A stretch of 64,000 bases of DNA from an uncultured delta proteobacterium (GTDB taxonomy: Bacteria; Desulfobacterota; Binatia; UBA9968). Both the position numbers and the translations under genes were made by a program. The stretch spans positions 96,001-160,000 of the forward strand of contig CAVUZH010000025.1 of the NCBI GenBank assembly GCA_963745835.1, written 5' to 3'. Below the pieces are notes generated by a model. The model did no database searches, had not been told where the DNA came from, and was given only the letters and a program-made list of their open reading frames with translations. This document shows positions 12,402 to 51,318 of the stretch, in pieces; position 1 is the stretch's first letter; each line of letters starts with the position of its first letter.

Positions 12402-12514
12402 TCAAATTACGGATTCGGTAATTACGCCATGACGCCTCGAAACGTCTCACGAGATCGTTCTAGGACGGCTGATTCGTTTCTGCAGTCAACGATCGCGTGT
12501 GGTCTGGGGAGACA

Positions 12515-13225
12515 ATGAGCTATCTTCAAACACCTGTGTCACGGCCGACGATACTCGGTCGAAATGATTCAGCCCAATACCGAGAATCAGACGAGATTGA
12601 AGTCCAAACCGAGAACCACAAGCACTTTTGTGATCGTTTGCGTCAGCTCAGCCTTTCCGCTGGAGAGCGAATAGCGGCCGTAGATCTGGGTTGTGGAACG
12701 GGCCGTTATTTTCATTGCCTTCAAAACGTCGAAACATTGATCGGTGTTGATGTCTCGTGGGAAATGGCCAAGCAGGCCCGTTCTCCGGTGAGGGGTGAGG
12801 CCGTCACGATTGGCGGCATTAATCTGATTGCTGCAGATGTTTTGGATATTCATCTGCGTGGATCCTTTGATTTAATTTATTCTATCGGTGTTTTTGGTGA
12901 ACTCGTTCCGTGGGACATTGCGATTTGTAATAGATTGCATGATTGGCTCAAACCTGGTGGCAAGTTGTTTTTTACCGTTGTCGATGTTTTATCGAAATAT
13001 TCTTACATGTCGAATAAAAGAAAGGTGGCGGAAACGGTGAATTTGCTTTTGCCGTCACTGTGGAAGAGAAAATTACGAGAACGGCTCGGAACGTACTATG
13101 TGACGAAAAGAGAAATCATCACTATTTTTCGAAAGAGCAAATTTCGAGATTTCGAAACTCGAGGGCATGTTTCCACAGCGTCGTTATGGAAGGGCGCTCA
13201 TTACGAATGTTTGGCTACCAAATAG
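12515..13225 (+). CDS. Class I SAM-dependent methyltransferase
   Basis: VDLGCGTGRY, FDLIYS, LKPGG. Confidence 0.85.
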   Translation: MSYLQTPVSRPTILGRNDSAQYRESDEIEVQTENHKHFCDRLRQLSLSAGERIAAVDLGCGTGRYFHCLQNVETLIGVDVSWEMAKQARSPVRGEAVTIGGINLIAADVLDIHLRGSFDLIYSIGVFGELVPWDIAICNRLHDWLKPGGKLFFTVVDVLSKYSYMSNKRKVAETVNLLLPSLWKRKLRERLGTYYVTKREIITIFRKSKFRDFETRGHVSTASLWKGAHYECLATK

Positions 13226-13273
13226 TGTGGTCCGATAAAAATGAACCTTTCATCTCGACTCCTCAGGTGACAA

Positions 13274-14701
13274 ATGTCGATTGATAGCGATGTGTTCATC
13301 GTAAGATCCGTGCCGCGATATCCAGCATTTCCTTATGACATTGATGATTCTCTGCTGAACGCGCTGCGATTGCTTTTTTCAATGTGGGGTAAAGACCCAC
13401 AGAATCCATTCAAAGAGTGGCTCGGGCCGGGCTCTCGGGTTGTCATTAAACCCAACTGGGTTCTTCACCACAGTCCGAATGAGAAGGGTTGCGATGCTCT
13501 CGTCACGCACACGTCACTGATAAAACACATTATCGACCTGCTCGCCATTGCCTTAGGGGGAAACGGCTCAATTATCATCGGCGACGCTCCGCTTCAGAGT
13601 TGCGATTTTCAGGCCCTTATAACGGAAACCCGAATTGCAGAAGTTGTAAATGATGCCCGTAAAAAATACCCGGGTCTCGATATCAGGATCGAGGACTGGC
13701 GGCTCACGGTGTTTGAAAATCTGAGCGCTGCTCAGAAACGGAATGCTGATTATGACAACTCGATTTTAAAGGATTATCAAATAGTCGATCTCGGTGCGGA
13801 TAGTTTTCTCGAAGACATTTCGGACTACGCCGATAAATTCAGGGTCACCTGCTACGCGCCGCATCTCATGGCTGCGCACCATCAGAAAGGAAAGCACGAA
13901 TATCTGGTGACCCGGAAAGTGTTCGATGCCGATCTGCTCATTAATTTACCTAAGATGAAAACCCATATAAAGGCGGGTCTTACCGGCGCTCTGAAGAATC
14001 TCGTCGGCATTAATGGTCATAAAGAGTTCCTTCCGCATCATATACTGGGCGCTAGTGAAAACGGCGGAGATTGCTACTACAAGGGCAACAGCTTACGAAA
14101 CCTGTACGACGCCGCATATGATAGATTTTGGACACGATACGAGGAGTTGTCGGAATCTCGACGTAAGTTAGGTACCTTGATGCTCGGCGGGCTCTGGCGC
14201 GCGTCTCGGATCGTAACTGGCGACTCAACATCAGCGGGAAGCTGGTTCGGCAATGAGACAATCTGGCGCATGACGCTCGACCTGAATCATCTTCTTTATT
14301 TCGGCCATCACGCACCAAAACAGATCATCTCGATCGTCGATGGTATCATTGCTGGCGAAGGAGAAGGTCCGCTCACCCCTTCACCGAAGCCCACGGGATT
14401 ACTCGTCGGCGGCGAAAATCCTGCGTATGTTGACGCGGCTTTGGCGCAGTTAATCGGATATAACATCTCGCGGGTGCCGACGATTTATCAGGCCATCTAT
14501 CATCGAAAGTCGCAGTTCGGCGGACCGTACCTCGAAAATTTTACTACCCACTTCTGGAAAGAGGGTGAGGCGAAGATTGTTCCGCTTCAGGAGCTGCCGG
14601 ATCTCAACTTCACTAAACCAGAGCATTGGAAGCGAGCAGCCAGACCACTGATAAATTTGCTGCCCGCGACTGCCGGTTCATCGATCACTGAACACGCATG
14701 A
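13274..14701 (+). CDS. DUF362-domain protein
   Basis: VVIKPNWV, IGDAP, INLPKMKTH..GLTGALKNLVG, DGIIAGEGEGP. Confidence 0.8.
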   Translation: MSIDSDVFIVRSVPRYPAFPYDIDDSLLNALRLLFSMWGKDPQNPFKEWLGPGSRVVIKPNWVLHHSPNEKGCDALVTHTSLIKHIIDLLAIALGGNGSIIIGDAPLQSCDFQALITETRIAEVVNDARKKYPGLDIRIEDWRLTVFENLSAAQKRNADYDNSILKDYQIVDLGADSFLEDISDYADKFRVTCYAPHLMAAHHQKGKHEYLVTRKVFDADLLINLPKMKTHIKAGLTGALKNLVGINGHKEFLPHHILGASENGGDCYYKGNSLRNLYDAAYDRFWTRYEELSESRRKLGTLMLGGLWRASRIVTGDSTSAGSWFGNETIWRMTLDLNHLLYFGHHAPKQIISIVDGIIAGEGEGPLTPSPKPTGLLVGGENPAYVDAALAQLIGYNISRVPTIYQAIYHRKSQFGGPYLENFTTHFWKEGEAKIVPLQELPDLNFTKPEHWKRAARPLINLLPATAGSSITEHA

Positions 14702-16053
14702 AGCCTTCTCTTTTGAGACGATTGATTCTGCCGGCATGGCAGCGGGCGAAAGGGCAGAATAGCTTAGAGCTATTGCCTTACTTGGATAAGACCCAATGGC
14801 TACCACGCGATGAACTTGAGGGTTTGCAGTGGCGACGAGTTGCTGCTCTGTTGGAACATGCTTATGAGCACGTCCCGTATTATCGAGAGCTCATGCGCGA
14901 GAGGCAGATCGTTCCCGAGTCGCTTGTTCGAAGGCGTTCATTGGAGACGTTGCCTCTTTTGGATCGTCAAATCATAAACCAGCAGCGCGATAGACTTCGC
15001 GCCACAAACGTCCGAGCCGAACGGTTCGTGCCAAACGGCACCGGCGGTTCGACAGGCGAGCCGCTTCTTTTTTTCGATGACGGGGACCAAGCGGGATGGT
15101 CGGAAGCGGCGGTGTGGCGCTCGCACCGTTGGTATGATGTTGATGTTGGTGAGCGGTGTGCGTATCTCTGGGGCGCGAACTTCGATTTGAGCGAGTTTCA
15201 GGGGTTCAGTGGGCGGCTCAAATCGCGTGTGTTGAATTTATTGATGCTGCCGGCGTGGGAACTAAGTGAACCAACCGCATCGCTGTTCTGGAAACAACTC
15301 TGCGAGTTCCAACCGCGATTGTTAGTAGCCTATACCGGTGCATTGCATCATTGGGCGCGTCTGCTGGGCGATGACCGCGATCCAGTCCCTGGCCTTTCCG
15401 CGATCATCGTCTCGGCCGAAATGTTATACGAGGAAACGCGTCGCGTCATCGAGAATTGTTTCAAGGTGCCGGTTTACAATCGCTACGGCGGACGAGATTT
15501 ACATTTCGTCGCGCAAGAATGCCGGGCACAAAATGGGTTGCACATGAACTCAGAGAACTTGCTCGTGGAGATTGTCAAAGATGGACGGCAAGTTCCGCCG
15601 GGAGAGTTGGGGGAAATTGTCATTACCCGGCTGGATAATTTCGTGATGCCTTTTGTGAGATATAGAAGTGGGGATTTGGGCGTTATGAACAATGATGTTT
15701 GCGAATGCGGACGGTCACTTCCGCTGCTGGAAAAAATCGAGGGTCGGGTGCAAGACGCGATTGTCACGGTCGAGGGTAGAATAATCTCGGGACCCTTCTT
15801 CGCACACGTAATGAAAGATTGTCCCGACGTCAGGGAGTTTCAAGTTCACCAGCTTGCCATCAGTCGACTGCTTATTGTGATTGTTCTTCAGGGCGAACGG
15901 CAGTTCGTCAGCCGGTCGAGAATCGAGCGCATCGCTCAGCAGTACATGGGACGTAACATGCAGATCGAGTTCGACGTCCGTGACAGCATTCCGCTGACTC
16001 GCACCGGCAAGCGGCGCGTCATAGTTTCACATCTGAGTGCCAGTGCGGCATGA
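14698..16053 (+). CDS. Phenylacetate-CoA ligase family (CapK-like) adenylating enzyme
   Basis: HVPYYR, TGGSTGEP, YNRYGGRD, MPFVRYRSGD, IEGR, TGKRR; ATGA overlap with DUF362 gene. Confidence 0.85.
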   Translation: MKPSLLRRLILPAWQRAKGQNSLELLPYLDKTQWLPRDELEGLQWRRVAALLEHAYEHVPYYRELMRERQIVPESLVRRRSLETLPLLDRQIINQQRDRLRATNVRAERFVPNGTGGSTGEPLLFFDDGDQAGWSEAAVWRSHRWYDVDVGERCAYLWGANFDLSEFQGFSGRLKSRVLNLLMLPAWELSEPTASLFWKQLCEFQPRLLVAYTGALHHWARLLGDDRDPVPGLSAIIVSAEMLYEETRRVIENCFKVPVYNRYGGRDLHFVAQECRAQNGLHMNSENLLVEIVKDGRQVPPGELGEIVITRLDNFVMPFVRYRSGDLGVMNNDVCECGRSLPLLEKIEGRVQDAIVTVEGRIISGPFFAHVMKDCPDVREFQVHQLAISRLLIVIVLQGERQFVSRSRIERIAQQYMGRNMQIEFDVRDSIPLTRTGKRRVIVSHLSASAA

Positions 16054-16062
16054 TCAGATCGA

Positions 16063-17130
16063 TTGATCCTTCGAAGTGTAGGGACAAAAAATACTGTGGC
16101 TGCCGTTCACATGCTCACGACAGCCGACGAGAATATCGCCGGCTACAGCGGAGCGGACTTTCGCAGGCTTTCTGCGGCCGCGGCCTGCGACAGATTCGGA
16201 AAACATCAACTTGTTGAGTCTCCCGAGCAGGCAGACATCATTCTCTTCGTTGGTTCGACCTATCCGGACCACCGAGATGTTAGATCGCATCCGCTTTTGC
16301 GCCTCTACGCGAACAAATGTTTTCTGTTCCAATCCGACGATTACGTCATCCCATTCCTGCCGGGCGTCTATGTGAACATAGCTAAACGTTGGTACAGCGA
16401 CCGCACTGTCACCGGGCCTTACCTGCAGATGACCCAGTGGGAAGATGTGCCTTATATCCCATCGCTCGCTGGCTGCAAATTCCTGTTTTGTTTTGTCGGC
16501 TCCACGAGGACTCACGGTGTAAGACGACGGCTAATGGGCTTAAAGCATCCCCGTGCCTACCTCGAAGACACAAGTGCGTTGGTACCATCGACTGAATGTA
16601 ATAAAGCATTTGTCATGGTTGAGTACCAACAAGGCGCCAAAACGCATTATGGAGAAATCATCAGCAGGAGCAAGTTTGTACTTTGCCCGCGCGGATATGC
16701 CTGCTCAACCTGGCGGCTTTTTGAAACTATGAAGGCTGGCAGAGTACCGGTTATCGTTTCAGACCAATGGGTCCCGCCCGCGGGTCCTGCCTGGGAAACC
16801 TTTAGCATCCGGGTCAAGCAGAATCAGGTCGGTCGTATACCGTCACTTCTGGAAGAATATGAATCCGAAGCCGAGGCGATGGGCGGGCGGGCCAGAGCTA
16901 CTTGGGACGAGTGGTTCTCTAGGGAGACGGTTTTTCATAGAGTTGTAGAATGGTGCTTGAGTCTGAAGCACCGGTCGCAGGACGCGAACGTCAGCTCTAT
17001 TATGCCATATGTCCAATTACTGCGGCCGTTTTACTTGCGACACGTGCTACTTCCCGAGATTAAGCTGGGACTTTCACATCACATGCTCGGAGTTCAGCGG
17101 TTTCTCTCCGGGCGTTTTTTTTGGAGCTAG
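16063..17130 (+). CDS. Exostosin-family (GT47-like) glycosyltransferase
   Basis: FLFCFVGS, SKFVLCPRGY..TWRLFETMKAGRVPVIVSDQWVPP. Confidence 0.78.
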   Translation: MILRSVGTKNTVAAVHMLTTADENIAGYSGADFRRLSAAAACDRFGKHQLVESPEQADIILFVGSTYPDHRDVRSHPLLRLYANKCFLFQSDDYVIPFLPGVYVNIAKRWYSDRTVTGPYLQMTQWEDVPYIPSLAGCKFLFCFVGSTRTHGVRRRLMGLKHPRAYLEDTSALVPSTECNKAFVMVEYQQGAKTHYGEIISRSKFVLCPRGYACSTWRLFETMKAGRVPVIVSDQWVPPAGPAWETFSIRVKQNQVGRIPSLLEEYESEAEAMGGRARATWDEWFSRETVFHRVVEWCLSLKHRSQDANVSSIMPYVQLLRPFYLRHVLLPEIKLGLSHHMLGVQRFLSGRFFWS

Positions 17131-19042: not shown

Positions 19043-20281
19043 GTGAACCCTCGGCTCTCAAGCTTTCCGAGCAACTGCATGCCTCGCCTCAAGAAACTCG
19101 CGCCCTTATTGCTCCTTTGTTTCTCATCTGTTGTACTTGCTGGACTGATATCGGAGGCTTTGCTGACTATAGCCCAGATAAACACAAAAGCTTACGATCG
19201 ATACATTCCCGGCAAGGGGACTACTTACGTACCTGGCGCCTACTATCGGCACACCAAAGAAGGCTTCTCAGAAGGATACATCAACTCTCACGGGTTCCGC
19301 GACTACGAGCGGTTTTATGAAAAGCCTGAAAATAGTGTCAGGATACTCATTCTGGGCGATTCTTATGTAGAGGCACTCCAGGTTGCGCTTGAGAATGCGT
19401 TTCCGGCGCTTCTTGAAAAAAAGCTCAATGGAAACTCTACCGCGACGAAATTCGAGGTCTTGAATCTAGGTCAGTCTGGTTTTGGAACTGCTGACGCGTA
19501 CATGAGGTATCTGAATTTCGGCGTCAAATATTCTCCCGATTTGGTCCTTCTCGCTTTTTTGACTGGTAACGACCTCCAGGATAATTCCAAATTTCTCAAT
19601 CGAGAAAATCTCCGGTTCTATTTTGTTTTTGACGACCAACAAAGACTGGTATTGGATCGTTCGCTGATGGACCAGTACGAACGGAATCTAAACCTTCCAA
19701 GACGGGTCTTCCAATATCTCAAACGAAATTCTTATCTCGCGAGCTTAATTTCTCAACGGTTTTACCTGCTGAGGCTTCAAATTCGCAATCGTGATTTTGG
19801 CAGGAGCGTCGCAGGAAAACAGCAAAGTGGATCTAAGCCGAAAATAGATGAGTTCTCCCCCCTGAATATTTATTTATCTAACCAAAGTAATCATTGGAGA
19901 CAGGCTTTTGACGTCAGCACAGATTTGCTGTGCAAATTCAGGGACAGTGTAGAAGCGAGCGGGAGCCAGTTTCTCCTCGTTACGCTCTCAAATGCCGAGC
20001 AAGTTCATCCTGAACTTCAGCGGCAGCTCAGGAATGAATACGACACAGAATTTGATTTTGACCAGCCAGACTCTCTTCTTGAGGAATTTGCAAAGAGAAA
20101 ACACATTTCTCACCTAAACCTGATGCCGTTCTTTCGTGAATATCACCTTCGAACTGGAAACTATCTTCATGGTTTTGGTGGAAGTAAGGGAGGACACTGG
20201 AACGAGAATGGTCACCGTCTGGCCGCAGAGAAGATCTTCGAGTTTTTAAAGAACAGCGATCTTCTTCATCTTCCGCTCTAA
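19043..20281 (+). CDS. Membrane-anchored SGNH/GDSL-fold protein (AlgX/AlgJ/SxtL-like)
   Basis: N-terminal hydrophobic anchor; NSHGFRD; ILGDSY (block I), LNLGQSG, GND, GHWNENGH. Confidence 0.8.
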   Translation: MNPRLSSFPSNCMPRLKKLAPLLLLCFSSVVLAGLISEALLTIAQINTKAYDRYIPGKGTTYVPGAYYRHTKEGFSEGYINSHGFRDYERFYEKPENSVRILILGDSYVEALQVALENAFPALLEKKLNGNSTATKFEVLNLGQSGFGTADAYMRYLNFGVKYSPDLVLLAFLTGNDLQDNSKFLNRENLRFYFVFDDQQRLVLDRSLMDQYERNLNLPRRVFQYLKRNSYLASLISQRFYLLRLQIRNRDFGRSVAGKQQSGSKPKIDEFSPLNIYLSNQSNHWRQAFDVSTDLLCKFRDSVEASGSQFLLVTLSNAEQVHPELQRQLRNEYDTEFDFDQPDSLLEEFAKRKHISHLNLMPFFREYHLRTGNYLHGFGGSKGGHWNENGHRLAAEKIFEFLKNSDLLHLPL

Positions 20282-39545: not shown

Positions 39546-39591
39546 GGGTGCATTTTTGCTAATCAAAGGGCTAGGCAGAGTGTTGTCGATA

Positions 39592-39795
39592 GAGACTGGT
39601 TTGACGGAACTCTGATCTATTATGCTCGCAACACCTGGTTTGACGTAATTTGGATCTATTATGCTTTGAACGGCGTGATAGACTGCGTACTTCTGGTTTT
39701 CTTTTCTTCTCTGTTTTTTTTTTTCTCTGCTTTAGTTTGATCGTATTCTCCTGTCTCACTCGCGAGACTGGTTTGACGGAACTCTGATCTATTAT
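39592..39795. repeat. Three direct repeats around a T-rich tract
   Basis: GAGACTGGTTTGACGGAACTCTGATCTATTAT identical at 39592-39623 and 39764-39795; variant CTGGTTTGACG-TAATTTG-GATCTATTATGCT at 39635-39665. Confidence 0.9.
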
Positions 39796-39912
39796 ACCGC
39801 CCCCAACACGGCTTGTTATATACTGAGATAACTTCCGCGGCTTTTTACTTATCTAATTTGGCATCATTGGCAAAGCCCAGCACAAAGACTGCGGCATTCG
39901 CATCCGGCGCGG

Positions 39913-40682
39913 GTGTTATCATCCTCACCGTCGGGAGAAGCTTTGGCTGAAGTCGCCATCACGGTCCCGTGCTACAACGAAGCTAATCGCTTGAAATGTG
40001 ACGCTTTCATCGATTTTGTTCGTGAGCATCACGATGTGATGTTTATTTTTGTCGACGATGGCAGCACCGACGATACCCCGCAGCTTTTGAAATCGATGTT
40101 TCAGAAGCGAAGCGAACAATATCCGGTTCATGAGTTTGGAAACCAATCTCGGGAAGGCCGAGGCGGTGCGACAAGGCACCTTGAGCGGCATCGCCGCAGG
40201 CGCCACATACGTCGGGTATTGGGATGCCGACTTGGCCACACCGTTGAATACAATCCTGGAATTTGTTGCTGAATTGAAGAAGAGCTCCGATTTACTCCTT
40301 GTCATGGGCGCCCGGGTTCAGTTATTGGGACGAACCATTGTTCGCAAGAAGTTACCGCCACTATTTGGGGCGAGTATTTGCAACCGTTGCATCTGTCGTT
40401 TTACGAATGCCGGTGTACGACACGCAATGCGGAGCAAAAATGTTCGTCTCGAGTGAACCCGTCGCGCTGGCTTTTCGGGATCCTTTTATTAGTCGATGGG
40501 TTTTCGATGTGGAAATACTTGCTCGACTGGTTCACAGAAGCAACTTGAATCCCCACATCGCAATTTGTGAATACCCACTCATGGAGTGGCATGATGTTAA
40601 GGGGAGCAAAATCAGGCTAAAAGACTTTTGGGTCGCGTTTTGGGATTTAGGCCGTATTCATTTTGCTTACAATCGATCTTGA
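39913..40682 (+). CDS. GT2, polyprenyl-phosphate glycosyltransferase-like (DPG/DPM synthase), frameshifted
   Basis: VPCYNEA.R, FVDDGSTD, NLGKAEAVRQG, YWDADLATP, YDTQCGAK, RWVFDVEIL, EYPL.EW.DV.GSK. Confidence 0.82.
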
Positions 40683-40770: not shown

Positions 40771-42621
40771 ATGGCAACTAATATTTTAGGAGTTTCCGCG
40801 TTTTATCACGACAGCGCGGCATGCTTGGTCCGCGACGGTGACATCGTCGCCGCCGCCCAGGAAGAGCGGTTTACGCGGAAAAAGTTCGATGCGGGTTTTC
40901 CGACCAACGCAGTCCGCTTCTGCCTTGACCAAGGTGGCATTACCATCGCGGATCTGAAGTACTTCGTTTTCTATGACAAGCCGCTAATCAAATTCGAACG
41001 GCTCCTGGAGACCTATGTGGCTTTCTCGCCCACAGGCATCAAATCGTTCTTAGCCGCGATGCCGGTCTGGCTAAAAGAAAAGATCCTGATGAAAAGGATG
41101 CTGCAAGATGAGCTAGTTTCGTTGAATGGCATCAAAAAACGCGCCGACCTCGCCCCGGTTCTCTTCGGCGAACATCACGAGTCCCATGCCGCCTCGGCTT
41201 TTTACCCCTCACCGTTTAAGTCCGCGGCAGTTCTATGCATGGACGGTGTTGGTGAATGGGCCACGACTTCCGCCTGGTTGGGCGAGGACAATAAACTTAC
41301 GCCTCTTTGGGAGATTCACTTTCCGCACTCCCTCGGACTACTTTATTCGGCATTTACCTATTACACCGGCTTCAGAGTCAATTCAGGCGAGTATAAAGTC
41401 ATGGGGTTGGCACCCTATGGCCAGCCCAAATACGTCAAAGCCATTTACGATAACCTGATCGATCTTAAAGACGACGGTACGTTCCGGCTAAAGATCGATT
41501 ATTTCAATTATTGCACCGGGCTGACGATGACAAACGGTAAGTTCGATCATCTGTTCGGTGGTCCCCCGCGTAAACCGGAGAGCAAGCTGACTCAACGCGA
41601 TATGGATCTCGCTCGCTCGATCCAGGAAGTCACCGAAGAAGTGATGCTCCGTCTCGTGAGAAGTTTGCATCGCGAGACCGGAGCCGAGAACCTCTGCCTC
41701 GCGGGTGGAGTCGCGCTGAACTGCGTTGGGAACGGCAGAATTCTTCGGGAAGGGCCGTTCAAGGGGCTGTGGATTCAACCTTCTGCCGGGGACGCAGGCG
41801 GGGCGATAGGCGCGGCTCTGACCGCGTGGCACCAATTGGAAAACCAACCGCGCCACATCGATGGGTCCAAGGACAGGATGCGCGGCAGCTTTTTGGGGCC
41901 ATCGTACACGAATGAAGAAATCGAAACTTTTCTCCGCAGCAAAGAAGTGCCTTATGAACGGCTGCATGATGACACGCTCTTTGATCGAGTGGCCAGAGAA
42001 TTGGCTCAGGGCAAGGTCGTCGGCTGGTTTCAAGGGGCGATGGAATTCGGCCCACGAGCGCTGGGAGGACGGAGCATACTGGGCGATGCGCGGGATCCCA
42101 AAATGCAGTCGGTGATGAACCTTAAAATTAAATTCCGCGAATCCTTCCGGCCGTTCGCCCCATCGGTTTTGCGCGAGCGGGTCTCGGATTACTTTGCGCT
42201 CGACACCGACAGCCCGTACATGCTGCTGGTGGCCCCGGTTGTCGAAAAGCGACGCATTGTACCAACCGAGGCCGAGCAGTCCCTCTGGGGCATCGATCTA
42301 CTTAACGTGCCAAAATCGGATATTCCGGCTGCTACCCACGTGGACTATTCCGCCCGCATTCAAACCGTGCACGAAGATACCAATCCACGCTATTACAAGC
42401 TGATCAAAGCGTTTGAGGCAAAAACCGGCTGCGGACTATTGGTAAATACCTCTTTCAATGTTCGCAGTGAGCCGATCGTCTGCGCGCCTGAAGATGCCTA
42501 CCGCTGCTTCATGCGCACAGCCATCGACATTCTGGTGCTGGAAAATTGTGTCTTGTACAAAGAGCAGCAAAAAGCTTTGGAGAACGATACCAACTGGCAA
42601 CAGGAATTTGAGCTGGATTAA
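40771..42621 (+). CDS. O-carbamoyltransferase, NodU/CmcH/SxtI family
   Basis: GGAGG RBS; YHDSAA, EERFTRKK, EHHESHAASAFY, DGVGE, GEYKVMGLAPYG, AGGVALNC, EFGPRALG, RESFRPFAP, NTSFN. Confidence 0.93.
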   Translation: MATNILGVSAFYHDSAACLVRDGDIVAAAQEERFTRKKFDAGFPTNAVRFCLDQGGITIADLKYFVFYDKPLIKFERLLETYVAFSPTGIKSFLAAMPVWLKEKILMKRMLQDELVSLNGIKKRADLAPVLFGEHHESHAASAFYPSPFKSAAVLCMDGVGEWATTSAWLGEDNKLTPLWEIHFPHSLGLLYSAFTYYTGFRVNSGEYKVMGLAPYGQPKYVKAIYDNLIDLKDDGTFRLKIDYFNYCTGLTMTNGKFDHLFGGPPRKPESKLTQRDMDLARSIQEVTEEVMLRLVRSLHRETGAENLCLAGGVALNCVGNGRILREGPFKGLWIQPSAGDAGGAIGAALTAWHQLENQPRHIDGSKDRMRGSFLGPSYTNEEIETFLRSKEVPYERLHDDTLFDRVARELAQGKVVGWFQGAMEFGPRALGGRSILGDARDPKMQSVMNLKIKFRESFRPFAPSVLRERVSDYFALDTDSPYMLLVAPVVEKRRIVPTEAEQSLWGIDLLNVPKSDIPAATHVDYSARIQTVHEDTNPRYYKLIKAFEAKTGCGLLVNTSFNVRSEPIVCAPEDAYRCFMRTAIDILVLENCVLYKEQQKALENDTNWQQEFELD

Positions 42622-42731
42622 ACCGATATCGACGTGATCTTGTCCGTGAACTTTAGCGAATCAACACGAACACGCTAGCACGAAATGAGTTAAAGTAGTC
42701 AAGCTGGCACAACACTCGTGAGGCAACGATC

Positions 42732-43127
42732 GTGAAAGAGGACATTACATCCAAGCAATTGCGTTCCTTCGGCTTCATGGTGGGCGGAATATTTGCCGCC
42801 ATAGGGGGCTGGCCGCTTGTTTTCCGTGCTGAGGATCCTCGATGGTGGGCGCTGGTTCTGGCCGCCTTTCTGATAGTTCCTGCGGCGATCTCTCCAGCGG
42901 TTTTGGCCTGGCCTCATAAGGGATGGATGTGGATCGGGCATGTCCTAGGCTGGATCAATACGAGAATTATTCTGGGTTTCGTCTTCTATCTAATCGTGAC
43001 GCCGACGGGGCTGTTTAGACGTTGGCTCGGGAAAGATCCCATGGGCCGAAAGTTAAGACCTGACCTCGACAGTTACCGGGTTACTCGCGAGCCTAGACCG
43101 GCATCGCATCTAAAAAAACAATTCTAA
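42732..43127 (+). CDS. SxtJ-family membrane protein
   Basis: LRSFG, WM.IG.VLGWINTRIILG.VFYLIVTP.G..R..GKDPM; directly after the carbamoyltransferase. Confidence 0.85.
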   Translation: MKEDITSKQLRSFGFMVGGIFAAIGGWPLVFRAEDPRWWALVLAAFLIVPAAISPAVLAWPHKGWMWIGHVLGWINTRIILGFVFYLIVTPTGLFRRWLGKDPMGRKLRPDLDSYRVTREPRPASHLKKQF

Positions 43128-43275
43128 AAAACAGTTCGGCTGTGCTGTTGAACCGGCGCAGAAAATTGCTTGGATCATCTCTGCTCTGTGCATCCGTAGA
43201 TAGTTTCTCGTTTAAACGGTTGTTGCTGAACCAATCGTTCCCATCGTCTCGGTCGGCTAGAAATTTGGAGGTTCT

Positions 43276-43428
43276 ATGGGCGAGTTCTTGATGGATCTGT
43301 GGTCATTTATGAAAGAGCGGAAGAAGTTTTGGCTTTTTCCAATCATCATCTGGCTGGTTCTGCTCGGCGGGTTGATAGTTCTTACTTCTGGATCTGCTGT
43401 TGCGCCTTTCATTTATACGCTGTTTTAG
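43276..43428 (+). CDS. DUF5989 / SxtK-family small membrane protein (50 aa)
   Basis: Not in ORF track; GGAGG RBS; MGEFLMDLWSFMKERKKFWLFPIIIWLVLLGGLIVLTSGSAVAPFIYTLF*. Confidence 0.88.
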   Translation: MGEFLMDLWSFMKERKKFWLFPIIIWLVLLGGLIVLTSGSAVAPFIYTLF

Positions 43429-43473: not shown

Positions 43474-44634
43474 ATGAGCTCTGAATTTATTCCATTTCAT
43501 AAGCCTGCTATCGGCGAGGACGAAATCCGTTCGGTCGTCGAGACGCTTAGATCGGGTTGGTTGACCACCGGACCCAAGGTCAAAAAATTTGAAGCGGAAT
43601 TTGCAAGTTACACGGGTTCTTCGCATGCCGTGGCAGTTAATTCCGCAACCGCGGCGCTTCATCTGGCGCTTGAGGCCGTGGGCATCAAGAGCGGCGACGA
43701 GGTCATCGTGCCGACCATGACGTTTACAGCGACGGCGGAGGTCGTGCTTTATCTAGGAGCGCGTCCGGTTCTCGTCGATTGCAGGACCGATGATCTCAAC
43801 ATCGATGTCGATCGGATCGAGGCATCGATCTCTAGTAACACCAAGGCAATTATTCCGGTTCATATCGCGGGCCGCCCATGCGCAATGGACCAGATTCTGG
43901 CGATCGCGCAAAGGCATCGGTTACGAGTGATCGAGGATGCAGCGCACGCGCTACCCGCCAGCCATCGAGGCAGAAAAGTCGGAGCCATCGGGGATATTAC
44001 TTGTTTCTCCTTTTATGCAACCAAGACAATCACGACCGGCGAGGGAGGAATGGCAACCACCGAGAATCCTGAGTGGGCGAAGCGGATGAGGATGATGAGC
44101 CTTCACGGGATTAGCCATGATGCTTGGGACCGCTACACGGAAAAAGGGTCTTGGTACTACGAAGTCCTGCAGCCCGGGTACAAATACAACATGACGGACA
44201 TCGCCGCTGCGTTAGGAATCGAGCAGTTGAAGAGATGCAACGATTTCTATCAGGCCCGGCGGCGCATCGCCGAACGGTATAATAAAGCGTTTGCCGATTT
44301 GCCGGAGATCCAGGTGCCGCCCTGCGGCTCTGACTTAGAGCATGCCTGGCACCTTTATATCATCCAGCTCAAGCTGGACCGGCTGAGCATTGATCGACAC
44401 GATTTCATTAAAGCGCTAAACAGCCGAAGGATTGGAACATCTGTGCATTTCATTCCGCTCCATCTCCATCCCTTCTACAAGCAAACCTTTAGTTGTCAGC
44501 CTGCGGATTTCCCTCAGGCCAGCGCGACCTTCGATCGGATCGTTTCAATACCGATATATCCGACGATGACGGAGCAGAACGTGTCTGACGTCATTGCGGC
44601 CATACGCAGCCTGGTTCAGGAATATCGCAGGTGA
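43474..44634 (+). CDS. DegT/DnrJ aminotransferase
   Basis: SGWLTTGP, NSATAALH, EDAAHA, SFYATKTITTGEGG, GYKYNMTD. Confidence 0.92.
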   Translation: MSSEFIPFHKPAIGEDEIRSVVETLRSGWLTTGPKVKKFEAEFASYTGSSHAVAVNSATAALHLALEAVGIKSGDEVIVPTMTFTATAEVVLYLGARPVLVDCRTDDLNIDVDRIEASISSNTKAIIPVHIAGRPCAMDQILAIAQRHRLRVIEDAAHALPASHRGRKVGAIGDITCFSFYATKTITTGEGGMATTENPEWAKRMRMMSLHGISHDAWDRYTEKGSWYYEVLQPGYKYNMTDIAAALGIEQLKRCNDFYQARRRIAERYNKAFADLPEIQVPPCGSDLEHAWHLYIIQLKLDRLSIDRHDFIKALNSRRIGTSVHFIPLHLHPFYKQTFSCQPADFPQASATFDRIVSIPIYPTMTEQNVSDVIAAIRSLVQEYRR

Positions 44635-45239
44635 TTAAAAGGGCCTTTGACATTGCGATCGCAGCGACCGGTCTCATCGCGCTATTGCCGGTGATGGCCG
44701 TCGTGGCGGTTTTGATCAAATGCGATTCTCACGGTCCCGTCTTTTTTAAACAAAGAAGAATGGGGAGAGGGTTTCGAGATTTTTTGATCTACAAATTTCG
44801 TACAATGAAACAAGAGTCCGAGCTAACCGGACGTTTGATCACGATAGGAGAGGATCCAAGAATTACCCGCGTCGGTAGGCTCTTGCGCAAAACAAAGATC
44901 GATGAGTTGCCGCAGCTTATCAATGTTCTAAAAGGGGAGATGAGTTTAGTCGGTCCACGACCCGAACTGCCGCGGTTCGTCGAGCTTTTTCGTAGTGAGT
45001 ACGCCGAGATACTCACTGTTCGCCCGGGCATCACCGACCTTGCCTCGCTTAAATATCAGGATGAAGCAAAACTGATGGGCCAGTTTACCAATCCCGAAGA
45101 GGAATATGTCAGGAGCATTCTGCCGGACAAGATCCGCCTCGCCAAAGAATATATTGACCGCTCGTCAATGTTCTTCGACCTCAGCTTGATTCTAAGAACT
45201 TTGCCGAAGCTATTTGACTTCAAGCCATTGTCGCATTGA
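44631..45239 (+). CDS. Priming sugar (phosphoglycosyl) transferase, Bac_transf family
   Basis: KRAFD, KFRTM, DPRIT..G..LRK.KIDELPQL.NVLKGEMSLVGPRPE, RPGIT. Confidence 0.92.
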   Translation: MIKRAFDIAIAATGLIALLPVMAVVAVLIKCDSHGPVFFKQRRMGRGFRDFLIYKFRTMKQESELTGRLITIGEDPRITRVGRLLRKTKIDELPQLINVLKGEMSLVGPRPELPRFVELFRSEYAEILTVRPGITDLASLKYQDEAKLMGQFTNPEEEYVRSILPDKIRLAKEYIDRSSMFFDLSLILRTLPKLFDFKPLSH

Positions 45240-46105
45240 TATACCTGGGGTATCGCTCAATGATAAGCAATCAAAGCATGATAGACGCTCCGGTCATTCG
45301 CATCGAGCCTTCCCGCGGTTGGATATCACTTAAACTCAATGAATTATGGGAATATCGCGAATTGCTCTACTTTCTAGCTTGGCGAGATATCAAAATCCGC
45401 TATAAGCAAACGGTATTGGGAGCGGCGTGGGCGATTATTCAGCCATTTTTCACCATGGTTGTTTTCAGTGTTTTCTTCGGCCGTCTCGCTGGCATTCCCT
45501 CGGACGGTGTTCCTTATCCCATTTTCAGTTTTGCCGGGTTGGTGCCATGGACGTTCTTCGCCAATAGTTTGAATCAATCGTCAAACAGTCTGGTAAGCAG
45601 TGCGAATCTCATCCAAAAGGTTTATTTCCCACGCCTGGCGGTACCGATCGCAACCGTCTTTTCCGGGATTGTAGATTTCGCCCTGGCTTTTTTGATGTTG
45701 CTGGCTATGATGCTTTACTACGGCATGGTTCCGACTTTGAACGTGCTCTGGCTTCCGGCCTTTTTTCTTTTGGCCTTAATCACCTCACTCGGAGTGGGAC
45801 TGTGGCTTTCCGCCATGAACGTCCGCTTCCGTGATGTCCGTTATATCGTTCCGTTTTTAGTTCAGTTCTGGATGTTCTCCACTCCCATTGCCTATCCGAG
45901 CAGTCTTCTTTCGGAGCCCTGGCGTACTCTGTACGGCCTCAACCCGATGGTCGGTGTAATCGAGGGGTTTCGATGGGGTTTGTTAGGGACCAACACGGCG
46001 CCTGGAGCGATTATCTTTGTTTCTTCCTTCGTGGCGATGGCGATCTTTATCGGCGGGGCGTTTTATTTCAGACGGGTCGAGAAAACGTTCGCGGACATCG
46101 TCTAA
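45236..46105 (+). CDS. wzm: Polysaccharide ABC transporter permease
   Basis: RDIKIRYKQTVLGAAWAIIQP, KVYFPR, FRDV, LNPM. Confidence 0.92.
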   Translation: MIYLGYRSMISNQSMIDAPVIRIEPSRGWISLKLNELWEYRELLYFLAWRDIKIRYKQTVLGAAWAIIQPFFTMVVFSVFFGRLAGIPSDGVPYPIFSFAGLVPWTFFANSLNQSSNSLVSSANLIQKVYFPRLAVPIATVFSGIVDFALAFLMLLAMMLYYGMVPTLNVLWLPAFFLLALITSLGVGLWLSAMNVRFRDVRYIVPFLVQFWMFSTPIAYPSSLLSEPWRTLYGLNPMVGVIEGFRWGLLGTNTAPGAIIFVSSFVAMAIFIGGAFYFRRVEKTFADIV

Positions 46106-46149
46106 TGCGAATTCCAATTAGAATTTTCATTGTTTCATTAATGATCGGT

Positions 46150-46465
46150 AGAGAGACGGAGCAATTTGCTATCGTGTTCGTCGTCGGCATCGCCTAACAA
46201 CAGCGCAAAAAAATGTGCTTGACTATCAGTTGCTCAAATTCAGGCGCGCCTATCGGTGCCAATGACCGCGAGGCGAATCGGGCTAAGTCTCGCAAGGGAT
46301 TTCATTCACAAATCGGCATAGTAGAAAAAGAGCCGTCAGAGGCCACTGGCTGATCAGCCAGGAAGCTTCATCTTGAAAGATTAGGACCCGCGAAGCTGCT
46401 CCATGAATCAGGCGCCTGAGAGCTATCTTCACGAGCATCACTAGAACCACCAGGCATGCGTAAAC
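46150..46465 (+). pseudogene. Decayed four-helix-bundle (TIGR02436 / 23S-IVP-like) gene; boundaries approximate
   Basis: Cross-frame translation YQLLK-SGAPIGANDREANRAKSRK-DFIHK-IGIVEKEPSE..WL matches the family pattern QLLRSGTSIGANYREA..SR.DFIHKI.I..KE..E..YWL. Confidence 0.7.
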
Positions 46466-46467
46466 AA

Positions 46468-46510
46468 TTTGGAATTGTGAATTTCGAACTTCGCAATTCG
46501 AAATCAGAAA
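46468..46510. repeat. Heptamer tandem/inverted repeat array forming a hairpin
   Basis: TTTGGAA TTGTGAA TTTCGAA C TTCGCAA TTCGAAA TCAGAAA, just upstream of the wzt ATG. Confidence 0.7.
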
Positions 46511-46517
46511 TTTATTT

Positions 46518-47840
46518 ATGAGCCTTTTAGCTGTTCATGTCGAGAAACTGAGCAAACTCTATCAGATCGGTCCGGCGGAGACGTACGCGACGATTCGGGA
46601 GAGCTTGATGGAGGCGTTCGCCGCTCCATTCCGTCGTGCGCGTGAGAAGCTTCAGTCTTCCAACCGGCAGGTCTGCTCGATTAGCGATACGATCTGGGCG
46701 CTGAAGGATGTTTCTTTTGAGATTAAGCAGGGAGAGATTGTCGGGATTATCGGGCGCAATGGGGCCGGCAAGAGCACGCTACTGAAAATTCTTTCGCGCA
46801 TCACCGAGCCGACCGATGGCTTTGCTGAAATCCATGGGCGGGTCGGCTCGTTGTTGGAAGTCGGAACCGGTTTCCACGGCGAGCTGAGTGGACGGGAGAA
46901 TATCTACCTGAACGGCGCCATCTTAGGCATGAGAAAGACGGAGATTGGCCGGAAGTTCGACGAGATCGTCGCTTTCGCGGAAGTGGAGAAGTTCATCGAT
47001 ACGCCGGTTAAGCGGTACTCCACCGGCATGTATCTGCGACTCGCGTTCGCAGTGGCGGCACACCTAGAACCGGAGATTTTGATTGTGGATGAGGTGCTTG
47101 CCGTAGGGGATGCCTCTTTTCAAAACAAATGCATAGGTAAAATGGGAGCCGTCGCCAAAGAAGGTCGAACCGTTCTTTTTGTCAGTCATAATGTCGCTGC
47201 GGTCAAGTCGCTTTGTAGTCGAGCCATTTTGCTGGATCGCGGGCAGGTGGATTGCGACGGGCGGGTCGATGACGTCGTGGATCGTTACGTCATGGCCAAC
47301 AGCAACGTGCTCAAGAGCGGGGCTATACCGGACGATGTGGAGCGGATCGGTACGGGTGAAGCGAAACTACGTTCCGTGCAACTCGCTAACATATCCTGTA
47401 ATCCGGTTTCAGAACTGTACTTTGGTCAGCCGTTCCGCGTCACGCTCGGGTTTGACGTCCTCACAAACATCCGGGATGTTTTTGTAGAAGTGAATATTGG
47501 CAAGCCCGATGGAACTGAGGTAGTTTTTTCTACCACGGTCGACGAAGGACAGCGACCGATGGATTTAACGACCGGACGCTATCAGGTGAATGCAGAATTC
47601 GACATCGTGCTCCTGCCCGGGCGGTATTCGATCGGTTTAGGTATTCACTTTATCGACGGTATGACCATCGATTTTATTCGACGTGTTATGGATTTTCGAA
47701 TTTTAAAAGTAGCGCAGAATGGGCACGGCGACTACCTCTGGGACACTGTTCGGGGCTATGTGCGTGGTCTTCCCCGCTGGGGAATGCATAAAATGGCGGG
47801 TTCAGAAGCTGCGCAAGCGATTAAGTTCCATCTCGCTTAG
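46518..47840 (+). CDS. wzt: Polysaccharide ABC transporter ATPase with C-terminal Wzt_C domain
   Basis: GRNGAGKST, YSTGM, ILIVDEVLAVGD, VSHN; about 170-aa C-terminal extension. Confidence 0.92.
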   Translation: MSLLAVHVEKLSKLYQIGPAETYATIRESLMEAFAAPFRRAREKLQSSNRQVCSISDTIWALKDVSFEIKQGEIVGIIGRNGAGKSTLLKILSRITEPTDGFAEIHGRVGSLLEVGTGFHGELSGRENIYLNGAILGMRKTEIGRKFDEIVAFAEVEKFIDTPVKRYSTGMYLRLAFAVAAHLEPEILIVDEVLAVGDASFQNKCIGKMGAVAKEGRTVLFVSHNVAAVKSLCSRAILLDRGQVDCDGRVDDVVDRYVMANSNVLKSGAIPDDVERIGTGEAKLRSVQLANISCNPVSELYFGQPFRVTLGFDVLTNIRDVFVEVNIGKPDGTEVVFSTTVDEGQRPMDLTTGRYQVNAEFDIVLLPGRYSIGLGIHFIDGMTIDFIRRVMDFRILKVAQNGHGDYLWDTVRGYVRGLPRWGMHKMAGSEAAQAIKFHLA

Positions 47841-49215: not shown

Positions 49216-51318
49216 GTGATGATCTACGCCAACCTTCGACCCCAAGTGCGATCTTCCATAGACTTCGGCCGCATTACTGTTGTGCTGGCCACTGTCATTC
49301 TTGGCCTACTTATTCATGGGATGCACGCAAGCAAGCTTGGACTGTACTGGGATGACAGTGAACTATGGCTGCAGCCAATGCAGTGGGCTGACGGAAGCGT
49401 AATGCAATTTGTTCTGAGTGATACGTTTGGAGTCTTGCGTGCGGAAAGACCTTTTGCCCATTTTCTGATGACAATACATCGCGCCGCCTTTGCAATCAGT
49501 CTCCCTGCACTGCACTGGAGCCAGGTTCTCTTACTGATACTGAACGCTGTCACCCTGGAAGTTATTGCATCGAAAATCGTTAACGAGAACTGGTATGTCT
49601 TTGCGGCTGGGGTTATCTTTCTTACTTACCCCCTGGCTCCTTTACACGCCATATGTCCAATTACTTTGCTTCACGTCTGGGCTTGTCTACTAGCCCTCCT
49701 GACCCTCTTGTTTTCTTGGTATGGCCTGAGGGCTAACGAGACGCGACGGCTCATGTGGTTTGCTCTTGGCTCCATCACGTACGTTGCAAGTATATTGACG
49801 CATGAAGTATTTGCTCTGATCCCACCTGTATTTGTGTGCCTGTTTGTCCTGTCGAAAACCAGACAGAACACTGCGGAATGGTATCAATTTTGGCGCATGT
49901 CACTCTACAAACCAGCTATTCAGGGGCTGGGTGTATTCGCGGGTCTCTTCGGACTATATGGGCTCTGGCGGGTGCTGATTCTCCCCACGTATGGAGTCTT
50001 TGGATACCCTAACTCTGATATAGTGTTAAGCCCGATAATCGTCGCAAAGAAGCTTCTAGCAGGCATAACAATCGGGTTTGTCCCTTGGGCCACAGTTTTA
50101 GACCGAATTAATTTATCCAGCCCGCCCATCACGTATGTCTTTTTTTCTGCTGGGCTGTTTGTTATTACATGGATCATTACTTTCCAGCTATTGCTACGTT
50201 CACCCGCCTATGATCACAGCGATCATCAAAACGCCGCGAAAAATCCTGGCGATGACCATTGGGTCCAAGCAGCCAGGACCGGCATAGCGTTGTTCGTAGC
50301 CGCGGTTTTAGCTATCGCGGTATCCCCTTCGGATGTCGATGTAAATTTTGGAGTCAACTCCCTGTCGCCCGGTCCGCGGGTTAACTTCGTCGCCACAATT
50401 GGCATCGCTCTCGCGCTGCCCGTCCTGTTTGCCCTGCTCGCGCAGTGGTCCCGCCGTTTTATAAGACTGGTGCAGTGTCATCCCCGCTCTATGAGACTTT
50501 TGGGCCTTGCGGGTATTGCCTGTCTCATATACGTAGGGTTCATTGGATTCCCTGCAGATGGGAGCGTTTTTTCACATCAGAGTGCTGTGCCAATTCTGTT
50601 CACTCGCTATTCACTAGCTTATGGATTGCTGGTGGTCGCATATGTATTCGTGATGGTACTTGTTACTGGAATGGTCGTCCTGTCATCGGTGTCTTATTTG
50701 CGTGACACGAGATCGCCTCCCATAGTCATCGTTCCCCGCATGCGTGCCCAATGTCTTTCTTGGGCAGTGGCCTGTATCGTCCTGTTCGGAACCCTTTTCC
50801 ACCTTAGTATCAAAGAGGAATTCGCTGACGAGTGGCGCCGTCACAAAGCTATGCTCGAGCAACTTCACGCTATCGCTCCTGCACTTGAGGACGACACATT
50901 TGTCATCATTGTTCATGAGGAGCTTAGCCGATCAGTTTCTATGCCCTATATGAGTCATTCGGAACTTAGCTCCTTCCTGCTAGCACTCTATGCTAATTGG
51001 TCAATCATGGGGACTACGGACCGGAACACCCGTTTCTATCCGGATGGAGTCGAAGCGCGATATTACGGGAAAGTCGCGATGTGGTTGCCTCCCGGTGTAA
51101 AGGGTCCAGCAAACATATATTATGCTACCTTACCTGTGCCACGGATATCCTATGATCGTCTTCTTCTGTTCTCATTCGACGGAACTAGTCTACGGCTGCT
51201 TCCTGAGATGGAGGTTGAGGTTGAAGGGAATGGGCGTGGAGTTGTGATGAATAATCCGGAACGAATTCTAAATCAAACATCGCTCAAAATGGCTGTATGG
51301 CGGCATGTGACCGACTAG
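49216..51318 (+). CDS. Large polytopic membrane protein, possible GT-C-fold glycosyltransferase
   Basis: 700 aa, more than 10 hydrophobic segments, GLYWDD after TM1, RP motif, soluble C-terminal domain. Confidence 0.55.
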   Translation: MMIYANLRPQVRSSIDFGRITVVLATVILGLLIHGMHASKLGLYWDDSELWLQPMQWADGSVMQFVLSDTFGVLRAERPFAHFLMTIHRAAFAISLPALHWSQVLLLILNAVTLEVIASKIVNENWYVFAAGVIFLTYPLAPLHAICPITLLHVWACLLALLTLLFSWYGLRANETRRLMWFALGSITYVASILTHEVFALIPPVFVCLFVLSKTRQNTAEWYQFWRMSLYKPAIQGLGVFAGLFGLYGLWRVLILPTYGVFGYPNSDIVLSPIIVAKKLLAGITIGFVPWATVLDRINLSSPPITYVFFSAGLFVITWIITFQLLLRSPAYDHSDHQNAAKNPGDDHWVQAARTGIALFVAAVLAIAVSPSDVDVNFGVNSLSPGPRVNFVATIGIALALPVLFALLAQWSRRFIRLVQCHPRSMRLLGLAGIACLIYVGFIGFPADGSVFSHQSAVPILFTRYSLAYGLLVVAYVFVMVLVTGMVVLSSVSYLRDTRSPPIVIVPRMRAQCLSWAVACIVLFGTLFHLSIKEEFADEWRRHKAMLEQLHAIAPALEDDTFVIIVHEELSRSVSMPYMSHSELSSFLLALYANWSIMGTTDRNTRFYPDGVEARYYGKVAMWLPPGVKGPANIYYATLPVPRISYDRLLLFSFDGTSLRLLPEMEVEVEGNGRGVVMNNPERILNQTSLKMAVWRHVTD

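Follow-up and report, generated by a model that had tools for sequence, protein, structure and literature searches.

FxYxxF-type tails of SxtK/DUF5989 microproteins and their linkage to SGNH proteins suggest a possible MBOAT-free carbamoyl-tyrosine relay

The window, a 64,000-nucleotide stretch of DNA from an uncultured delta proteobacterium, carries in a predicted glycan export locus three tandem genes for an O-carbamoyltransferase (CT), a small membrane protein of the SxtJ family and a 50-residue SxtK/DUF5989 microprotein that ends in the hexapeptide FIYTLF. The tyrosine of this ending is invariant in an independent sample of SxtK copies, SGNH-family proteins are linked to SxtK across genomes, and MBOAT proteins are nearly absent from SxtK loci. 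By analogy with known systems, CT, SxtJ, SxtK and a membrane-anchored SGNH protein may constitute a carbamoyl version of the MBOAT/DltX-SGNH acyl relays, a reading to which we give a probability of about 0.5. The elements concerned are the following.

40771..42621, + strand: NodU/TobZ/NovN-type O-carbamoyltransferase (CT), SxtI-like, 616 aa (Pfam)
42732..43127, + strand: small SxtJ-family membrane protein (131 aa) whose basic C-terminal tail ends in KKQF (PF19588)
43276..43428, + strand: SxtK/DUF5989 microprotein, 50 aa, ending APFIYTLF (PF19451)
43408..43425, + strand: codons of FIYTLF, SxtK residues 45-50, an FxYxxF-type motif with the candidate carrier Tyr47
19043..20281, + strand: membrane-anchored SGNH protein, SxtL-like, 412 aa, with an AlgJ/AlgX-like C-terminal half

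Results

Conservation of the SxtK C-terminal tail

SxtK matches PF19451 with an E-value of 3.3e-26 (91.5 bits, gathering cut-off 27), and a GGAGG sequence is found at 43267-43271, five bases ahead of its ATG. The protein is made up of an amphipathic N-terminus with an RKK cluster, one transmembrane (TM) helix, the uncharged tail segment TSGSAVAP and, as its last six residues, FIYTLF. Since the TM helix is preceded by KERKK and followed by an uncharged tail, the positive-inside rule predicts that the tail lies on the outer face of the inner membrane.

An independent sample of SxtK was drawn by a hidden Markov model search with PF19451 of 201 genomes of the window's phylum: 48 SxtK places outside the window's own genome, not selected by motif, were fetched, and two weak places without a tblastn match were excluded from the motif count. 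The terminal motif, which the initial annotation had expected to be invariant, is so at its tyrosine, kept in 47/47 readable copies, and not in its strict form, F.Y..F being present in 45/47, with MIYTIF and FVYPFV as the two other endings. Tandem SxtK paralogues occur in one locus (L119:6436-6816, - strand), the second of which ends PFVYPFV, with the Tyr retained and the last Phe replaced. Among 269 retrieved SxtK homologues, 235 have the exact F.Y..F ending, 19 carry it before apparent read-through tails and 15 lack the exact pattern. A further set of 80 loci was gathered partly by the pattern APFIYTLF and is therefore unusable for measuring the conservation of the motif. In an alignment of 20 sequences, the invariant residues are W9, F11, R15, K16, K17, W19, P22, A43, P44, F45, Y47, T48, and F50, so that the amphipathic N-terminal segment with its RKK is as conserved as the tail.

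Such endings are rare elsewhere. In the window's own genome (7.28 Mb), only 7 of the 103,428 stop-to-stop frames of at least 40 aa end in F.Y..F, and FIY..F endings among these frames are restricted to SxtK and an MBOAT protein; owing to this rarity, the terminal motif is not a chance feature. DUF5989 is a very large family of unusual conservation, with at least 7,995 clusters at 90% identity (7,995 of the 8,000 scored candidates match at E≤0.001) and 2,926 matched representatives at 50% identity, and its members share 60-86% identity across Nitrospirota, Proteobacteria, Cyanobacteria, Bacteroidota, Acidobacteriota, and Elusimicrobia. A search for longer SxtK proteins returned 208, mostly with miscalled N-terminal extensions; the few others are SxtJ-SxtK or CT-SxtJ(-SxtK) read-throughs, almost all singletons, and such fusions are weak evidence, as sequencing errors would look identical.

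Association of SxtK with SGNH proteins

In the same 201 genomes, we profiled the SGNH family (profile A2, E≤1e-20) and MBOAT (PF03062). SxtK is found in 44 genomes and the SGNH family in 39; 34 genomes carry both, 5 the SGNH family only, 10 SxtK only and 152 neither. The SGNH family is thus present in 34/44 SxtK genomes versus 5/157 SxtK-free genomes, an association of clear direction whose strength is overstated because the compared genomes are mutually related. MBOAT occurs in 53/201 genomes, including 23/44 of those with SxtK and 20/39 of those with the SGNH family; the other 21/44 and 19/39 have no MBOAT at all, and SxtK and the SGNH family are each independent of MBOAT. In several genomes (G045, G051, and G110), SxtK and the SGNH gene are 9-50 kb apart on one contig, compared with 23 kb in the window. 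A weak linkage was at first suggested by a search with the window's SGNH protein as a single sequence (E≤1e-15; 7/201 genomes); the family profile showed this to be a limit of sensitivity.

The gene neighborhoods were compared in the 46 loci of the independent sample with an SxtK open reading frame (ORF) and in the second set of 80 loci, with fetched flanks of 10 kb. The SGNH counts of the 80-locus set, given below, are partly circular, since 21 sequences of this set went into the SGNH profile.

SxtJ within 4.5 kb of SxtK: 37/46 independent; 75/80 second set
CT within 4.5 kb of SxtK: 38/46 independent; 69/80 second set
SGNH-family ORF within the fetched 10 kb: 28/46 independent; 52/80 second set (partly circular)
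SGNH-family ORF within 500 nt of the SxtK/SxtJ/CT span: 21/46 independent (20 on the same strand); 42/80 second set (34 on the same strand; partly circular)
MBOAT within 10 kb: 0/46 independent; 3/80 second set

These counts support a near-universal SxtK/SxtJ/CT triad, arranged as CT-SxtJ-SxtK, SxtJ-SxtK-CT or, in Bacteroidota-type loci, CT-SxtK-SxtJ. They also agree with two expectations of the initial annotation: that MBOATs would be missing from SxtK loci, from which they are nearly absent, and, in part, that SxtK would be linked to SGNH genes, which adjoin the triad in 21/46 and 42/80 loci, in line with the genome co-occurrence, yet lie 23 kb off in the window and are not detected in 10/44 SxtK genomes. 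The 10 multi-TM ORFs nearest SxtK match neither MBOAT nor AT3 families. In four independent-sample loci (L109, L111, L114, and L127), the SGNH gene is inserted between CT and SxtK, and 12 cyanobacterial loci have between one and five SGNH paralogues, similar to the window's SGNH protein at tblastn E-values of 1e-40 to 1e-50, directly after SxtK or within ~900 nt of it.

Several loci depart from the common arrangement. SxtK has no CT or SxtJ within 4.5 kb in L108, L121, L125, L126, and L132 despite the presence of flanks; it adjoins two SGNH genes only in L132, and in L126 it follows a gene that reads, from the sequence alone, as FAD-type oxidoreductase-like. In Trichodesmium erythraeum IMS101 (L038), five SGNH paralogues follow SxtK (11048-17037 and 19181-20140), four of them ~400 aa long and closely spaced, with no CT in the fetched 10 kb. 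In a cyanobacterial locus (L014:5374-6702) and 11 others, the SGNH genes are followed by a 440-aa N-terminally anchored family without a Pfam match, which carries GGS and DxxH-like motifs and matches the SGNH profile weakly (E 1e-4 to 4e-6).

The membrane-anchored SGNH protein

The ORF at 19043-20281, proposed in the initial annotation as a membrane-anchored SGNH protein, holds up as such: it has RLKK ahead of a hydrophobic anchor and contains the blocks GDS and GND and a C-terminal GHWNxxGH. Its true start may be the ATG at 19079, where the profile match begins. As a single sequence, it reaches no Pfam cut-off and gives weak SGNH and ALGX matches in NCBIfam/Pfam; blocks I, III, and V together with family-level similarity place it in the SGNH hydrolase superfamily. 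An alignment of 22 family members shows G105, D106, S107, D177, and H385 to be invariant. When the family profile is compared with the PDB, the N-terminal half best matches TesA-type esterases (E 5e-11), and the C-terminal half matches the O-acyltransferases AlgJ (4o8v, E 4.3e-8), AlgX, and PatB1. The RLKK ahead of the anchor, again by the positive-inside rule, predicts that the SGNH domain faces outward, and we regard the protein as a candidate extracytoplasmic carbamoyl acceptor/transferase.

The SGNH gene had been assigned to the same locus as SxtK; it does lie in the same window, at a distance of 23 kb and in another gene cluster, a separate Wzy-type polysaccharide cluster (~11-29 kb). Its own genome has no other strong member of the family, and of the four sequences in the phylum sample that it matches best, three adjoin SxtK (G174:C9, G093, and G076). 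Outside the window, the same genome has an SGNH-family paralogue at C18:218370-219440 (profile E 6.7e-42), ~1 kb from which a 42-codon frame (C18, ~220418-220546) ends FFYPLF; this frame has no clear TM helix and may be of chance origin.

Members of the SGNH family also occur beside MBOATs (G063, G141, L019, and L033), as would suit a family that works with FxYxxF donors elsewhere. The window itself contains no MBOAT, and the single PF03062 match of its genome is on another contig. This 487-aa MBOAT (L002, contig C3) ends in THSPVQFIYFQF, with FIYFQF as its final residues; as in SxtK, a TM helix is followed by a short Ser/Pro linker and then by the motif. The endings FIYFQF or FIYFDF also occur in three MBOATs of related loci, and SxtK looks like the detached last helix and motif of a bacterial MBOAT. 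The gene immediately after the own-genome MBOAT encodes a DltD-like protein of 346 aa with an N-terminal anchor, so by its predicted gene products the organism is also a carrier of a classical MBOAT-SGNH pair outside the window.

The carbamoyltransferase and SxtJ

The tandem CT, SxtJ and SxtK genes were placed correctly in the initial annotation, Pfam and the ORF listing being in agreement. CT contains both domains of NodU/TobZ-type enzymes, the Kae1-like N-terminal Carbam_trans_N (PF02543, E 1.4e-111) and the YrdC-like C-terminal Carbam_trans_C (PF16861, E 8.1e-73), and therefore belongs to this family. Of the solved structures, NovN matches residues 10-600 with an E-value of 1.5e-91, and GdmN and TobZ are also matched over the full length. 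With 130 bits, CT misses the NodU equivalog cut-off of 1000 bits and is thus not NodU itself. It carries the motif GPRALGGRS, described as the putative catalytic site of SxtI (bioRxiv 10.64898/2026.06.11.731795).

SxtJ matches PF19588 (E 6e-18, 65.9 bits, gathering cut-off 24.4). Its AlphaFold2 (AF2) model has a predicted local distance difference test (pLDDT) score of 91.7 and three helices, 7-31, 38-53, and 55-98, the last of 44 residues. A Foldseek comparison of the model with the PDB gave no match at E≤0.001, and its nearest clusters in the Protein Atlas are all SxtJ, its own family only. In an alignment of 34 sequences, W65 and P91 are the sole near-invariant residues, so SxtJ has nothing like the catalytic His of MBOAT. 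The proposal that SxtJ takes the place of the MBOAT thus finds no support, either in conserved catalytic residues in these 34 sequences or in the fold, and SxtJ is regarded as a putative scaffold or docking subunit, not a catalyst.

The strongly basic C-terminal tail and the three helices of SxtJ suggest a cytoplasmic C-terminus and an N-terminus outside. In-frame CT-SxtJ fusions, found at L073:243-2486 (747 aa) and L129:10117-12381 (754 aa), argue instead for a cytoplasmic SxtJ N-terminus, and rare SxtJ-SxtK fusions (L122:9898-10485, 195 aa; P0279, P0287, and P0306) would mean that the C-tail of SxtJ and the N-terminus of SxtK share one side of the membrane. All these fusions could be sequencing errors. 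Apparent fusions of SGNH or other domains to SxtJ (L007, L010, and L044) were rejected as high-GC artefacts. A complex prediction for SxtJ, SxtK, and the SGNH protein, with the latter as the scored partner, gave 0.02 versus a mark of 0.32, was run without controls and weighs neither way.

The glycan locus around the triad

Downstream of SxtK, on the same strand, are further sugar-polymer genes identified by Pfam.

43474..47840, + strand: DegT aminotransferase, Bac_transf initiating sugar-phosphate transferase, Wzm, and Wzt

Other sugar-modifying genes also lie downstream on this strand, and a UDP-GlcNAc 2-epimerase, glycosyltransferases, and an oxidoreductase/acetyltransferase fusion lie upstream of CT. 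By this predicted gene content, the locus is an ABC-transporter-type glycan export locus. The window ORFs scanned with Pfam, a subset of the total, have sugar-polymer functions or no match, and no toxin-pathway gene is among them, in keeping with the initial description of a polysaccharide locus free of saxitoxin genes.

Some further regions stand out. Immediately before CT, one gene is broken into three reading frames on the + strand (ORFs 39913-40272, 40130-40456, and 40299-40682), its N-terminal part resembling, on reading the sequence alone, a family-2 glycosyltransferase; it is probably a frameshifted pseudogene or affected by sequencing errors. Within the 370-nt gap before it, at 39590-39800, a ~30-nt sequence, gactggtttgacggaactctgatctattat, is present in two copies, along with a third, degenerate copy and a T-rich tract. 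Inside the ABC-transporter-type glycan operon, 49216-51318 (+ strand) encodes a 700-aa protein that lacks a Pfam match and has ~13 hydrophobic helices. The first polysaccharide cluster has a DUF362 protein beside a CapK/PaaK-like adenylate-forming ligase (13274-16053, + strand), the latter label coming from reading of the sequence, with no Pfam match.

Comparison with known systems

The background invoked in the initial annotation, an FxYxxF shuttle in DltX and PatA and an sxtI-J-K-L gene order, agrees with what PMC12148441, PMC13653941, PMC2885083, and PMC2684587 describe. In DltX, D-alanine is carried on the invariant Tyr of an FXYXXF motif near the extracellular C-terminus, and other bacterial MBOATs bear FXYXXF at their own C-terminus; PatA auto-acetylates the Tyr of its motif, the C-terminal hexapeptide of NgPatA is FIYANF, and PatB accepts acetyl from this hexapeptide (PMC12148441). 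DltX is ~49 aa long, and its C-terminal motif binds DltD, which is 425 aa long and has a single TM helix at its N-terminus (PMC13653941). SxtK resembles DltX of the DltX-DltB-DltD system as a ~50-aa single-TM microprotein with a C-terminal FxYxxF tail on the outer face, the latter being predicted for SxtK, and the likeness extends to the DltD-type partner, a protein of ~410-425 aa that has a single N-terminal TM helix and carries its SGNH-type domain on the outside (412 aa and a predicted outer domain for the window's SGNH protein), and to an ATP-dependent adenylate-forming enzyme upstream, DltA in Dlt and CT here. In contrast to Dlt, the SxtK system has neither an MBOAT (DltB) nor a carrier protein (DltC), includes the extra small protein SxtJ, would move carbamoyl instead of D-alanyl and is found in Gram-negative-type phyla and cyanobacteria, whereas the Dlt system, which D-alanylates teichoic acid, belongs to Firmicutes. 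Compared with DltX, SxtK thus has the architecture and the motif, and lacks both a PF12459 sequence match and the company of an MBOAT with DltA/DltC.

PatA/PatB and AlgI/AlgJ/AlgX have near-identical terminal hexapeptides, and the C-terminal half of the SGNH protein matches AlgJ, AlgX, and PatB1; however, the motif is on a free 50-aa peptide here and on the MBOAT there, and the donor would come from a soluble ATP-dependent enzyme instead of acyl-CoA through a membrane tunnel. In saxitoxin clusters, sxtI-J-K is followed by a GDSL/SGNH gene, sxtL (PMC2885083, PMC2684587); sxtJ and sxtK are described as short ORFs of unknown function beside the carbamoyltransferase (PMC2885083). The same Pfam families are found in both settings (PF02543/PF16861, PF19588, and PF19451), and the cyanobacterial homologues of the window's SGNH protein that follow SxtK occupy the sxtL position, while the window's locus makes a sugar polymer, is without toxin genes among the scanned ORFs and has its SGNH gene 23 kb off. 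Among NodU, NolO, TobZ, NovN, and GdmN, the window's CT is a full-length relative with both domains; the solved enzymes of the NodU/TobZ type differ in acting directly on soluble substrates, and the molecule names of their structure entries include no SxtJ/SxtK-type partner, gene neighborhoods being outside this comparison. By sequence and analogy, the SxtK system would function like the DltX/MBOAT-SGNH relays without being a member of those families.

Discussion

What was observed of the proposed relay is a terminal motif with an invariant Tyr, the triad, linkage to SGNH genes, and SxtK loci nearly free of MBOATs, and the relay is to this extent partly supported. In its first step, CT, cytoplasmic by its family, would convert carbamoyl phosphate and ATP into carbamoyl-AMP, a reaction established for its family. 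The carbamoyl group would then be moved to the Tyr47 hydroxyl of the FIYTLF tail of SxtK, held in the membrane with SxtJ. On the outer face, as the motif, the predicted topology, and the gene linkage suggest, the carbamoyl-Tyr tail may be presented to the catalytic Ser107 of the SGNH protein, which would finally move the carbamoyl to a hydroxyl of the exported glycan. A more specific form, which we hold only tentatively, is that SxtK is an MBOAT-free trans-membrane carbamoyl carrier whose 14-residue uncharged tail dips through an SxtJ-lined groove to CT and then out to the SGNH protein: Tyr47 would be carbamoylated at CT docked on the cytoplasmic face, and the tail would then swing to SGNH transferases on the outer face.

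Several points weigh against such a relay. The weakest step is the crossing of the membrane, with no visible path from the cytoplasmic CT site to the predicted periplasmic tail; a conserved His or other polar or catalytic residue is absent from the 34 SxtJ sequences, and the topology signals of SxtJ are ambiguous, N-out/C-in conflicting with N-in. In the AF2 model of the natural SxtJ-SxtK fusion P0287, the SxtK helix is confident and the tail has a pLDDT of ~51-67. Carbamoyl-serine enzymes are usually slow to turn over, which is awkward for a transfer intermediate. SxtK has no detectable sequence relation to DltX, with no PF12459 match at E≤10 in Pfam. The linkage is incomplete as well as inflated by the relatedness of the genomes: 10/44 SxtK genomes are without the SGNH family at E≤1e-20, 18/46 loci have no SGNH-family ORF within 10 kb, and 8/46 have no CT within 4.5 kb of SxtK, three of these at contig ends. 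The window's own SGNH gene, finally, is 23 kb away from CT, SxtJ, and SxtK, in a different gene cluster.

The most probable alternative is that SxtJ and SxtK do no more than anchor or organize the soluble CT on the cytoplasmic side of the membrane; there, in the way NodU-type enzymes act on their substrates, CT would directly carbamoylate a lipid-linked (undecaprenyl-PP) sugar, with the SxtK tail as a structural or assembly element and the SGNH protein separately modifying the same polymer. CT is indeed a complete NodU/TobZ/NovN-type enzyme, and no carrier is needed in the solved systems; CT, SxtJ, and SxtK form the universal core, to which SGNH is optional; conservation of SxtK is no lower in its cytoplasmic N-terminal part than in its tail; and CT-SxtJ fusions exist. 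The window's operon moreover belongs to the ABC-transporter type, whose glycans are completed in the cytoplasm, and the reviews, in the parts consulted, go no further than the view that SxtI is thought to work together with SxtJ and SxtK. We nevertheless consider membrane anchoring rather unlikely, as it leaves unaccounted for the acyl-shuttle likeness of the last six residues, whose invariant Tyr keeps a constant spacing to the C-terminus, and the concentration of SGNH proteins in SxtK genomes (34/44 vs 5/157), often inside the operon. An AlgJ-like extracytoplasmic SGNH protein without an MBOAT or AT3 partner, neither of which is matched by the nearest 10 multi-TM ORFs, would also have no donor.

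It is less probable that CT carbamoylates in the cytoplasm while a periplasmic SGNH decarbamoylase/esterase trims the product, the SxtK tail serving as a regulator or pseudo-substrate. Hydrolytic removal of the carbamoyl group was once proposed for SxtL (PMC2885083), and DltX-type tails bind the esterase DltE too (PMC13653941); the best match of the N-terminal half of the SGNH profile, TesA-type esterases, points the same way. This scheme, however, gives no reason for the strict Tyr, sits poorly with the transferase-like C-terminal half (AlgJ, AlgX, and PatB1), and up to five tandem SGNH paralogues after SxtK, as in L038, better fit a diversified acceptor specificity. A lipid-linked donor, in which CT would load a polyprenyl-phosphate-type carrier flipped by SxtJ and SxtK in the manner of GtrA/ArnEF-type proteins for use by the SGNH protein outside, is very improbable: the multi-helix SxtJ and single-helix SxtK are sized like known flippase subunits, and weak, non-significant Foldseek matches of SxtJ include GtrB, but no fold or sequence match supports a flippase, the Tyr motif would be left unused and lipid-phosphate donors are not known for SGNH enzymes.

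Literature searches, with subscription journals and supplements outside their range, found no paper that names DUF5989 and none that links DltX or an acyl shuttle, SGNH, a carbamoyltransferase, and a microprotein. The acyl-shuttle reading of the SxtK tail, together with its linkage to an AlgJ-like SGNH protein, provides a directly testable hypothesis for DUF5989. If the carbamoyl-tyrosine relay is correct, it would show that the acyl-tyrosine relay principle known from MBOAT, DltX, and AT3 also serves a chemical group and a donor enzyme not previously associated with it, and it would account for the O-carbamoylation of extracytoplasmic glycans. If, in addition, the tail of SxtK passes through a groove as outlined above, bacteria would have a second, ATP-driven route by which a protein tyrosine takes activated groups across the inner membrane, and a function would follow for DUF5989, SxtJ, and SxtL-type SGNH proteins, which are found in about one-fifth of the phylum-sample genomes and in many other phyla. 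The step performed by SxtI, SxtJ, SxtK, and SxtL in cyanobacterial clusters would then occur outside the cytoplasm.

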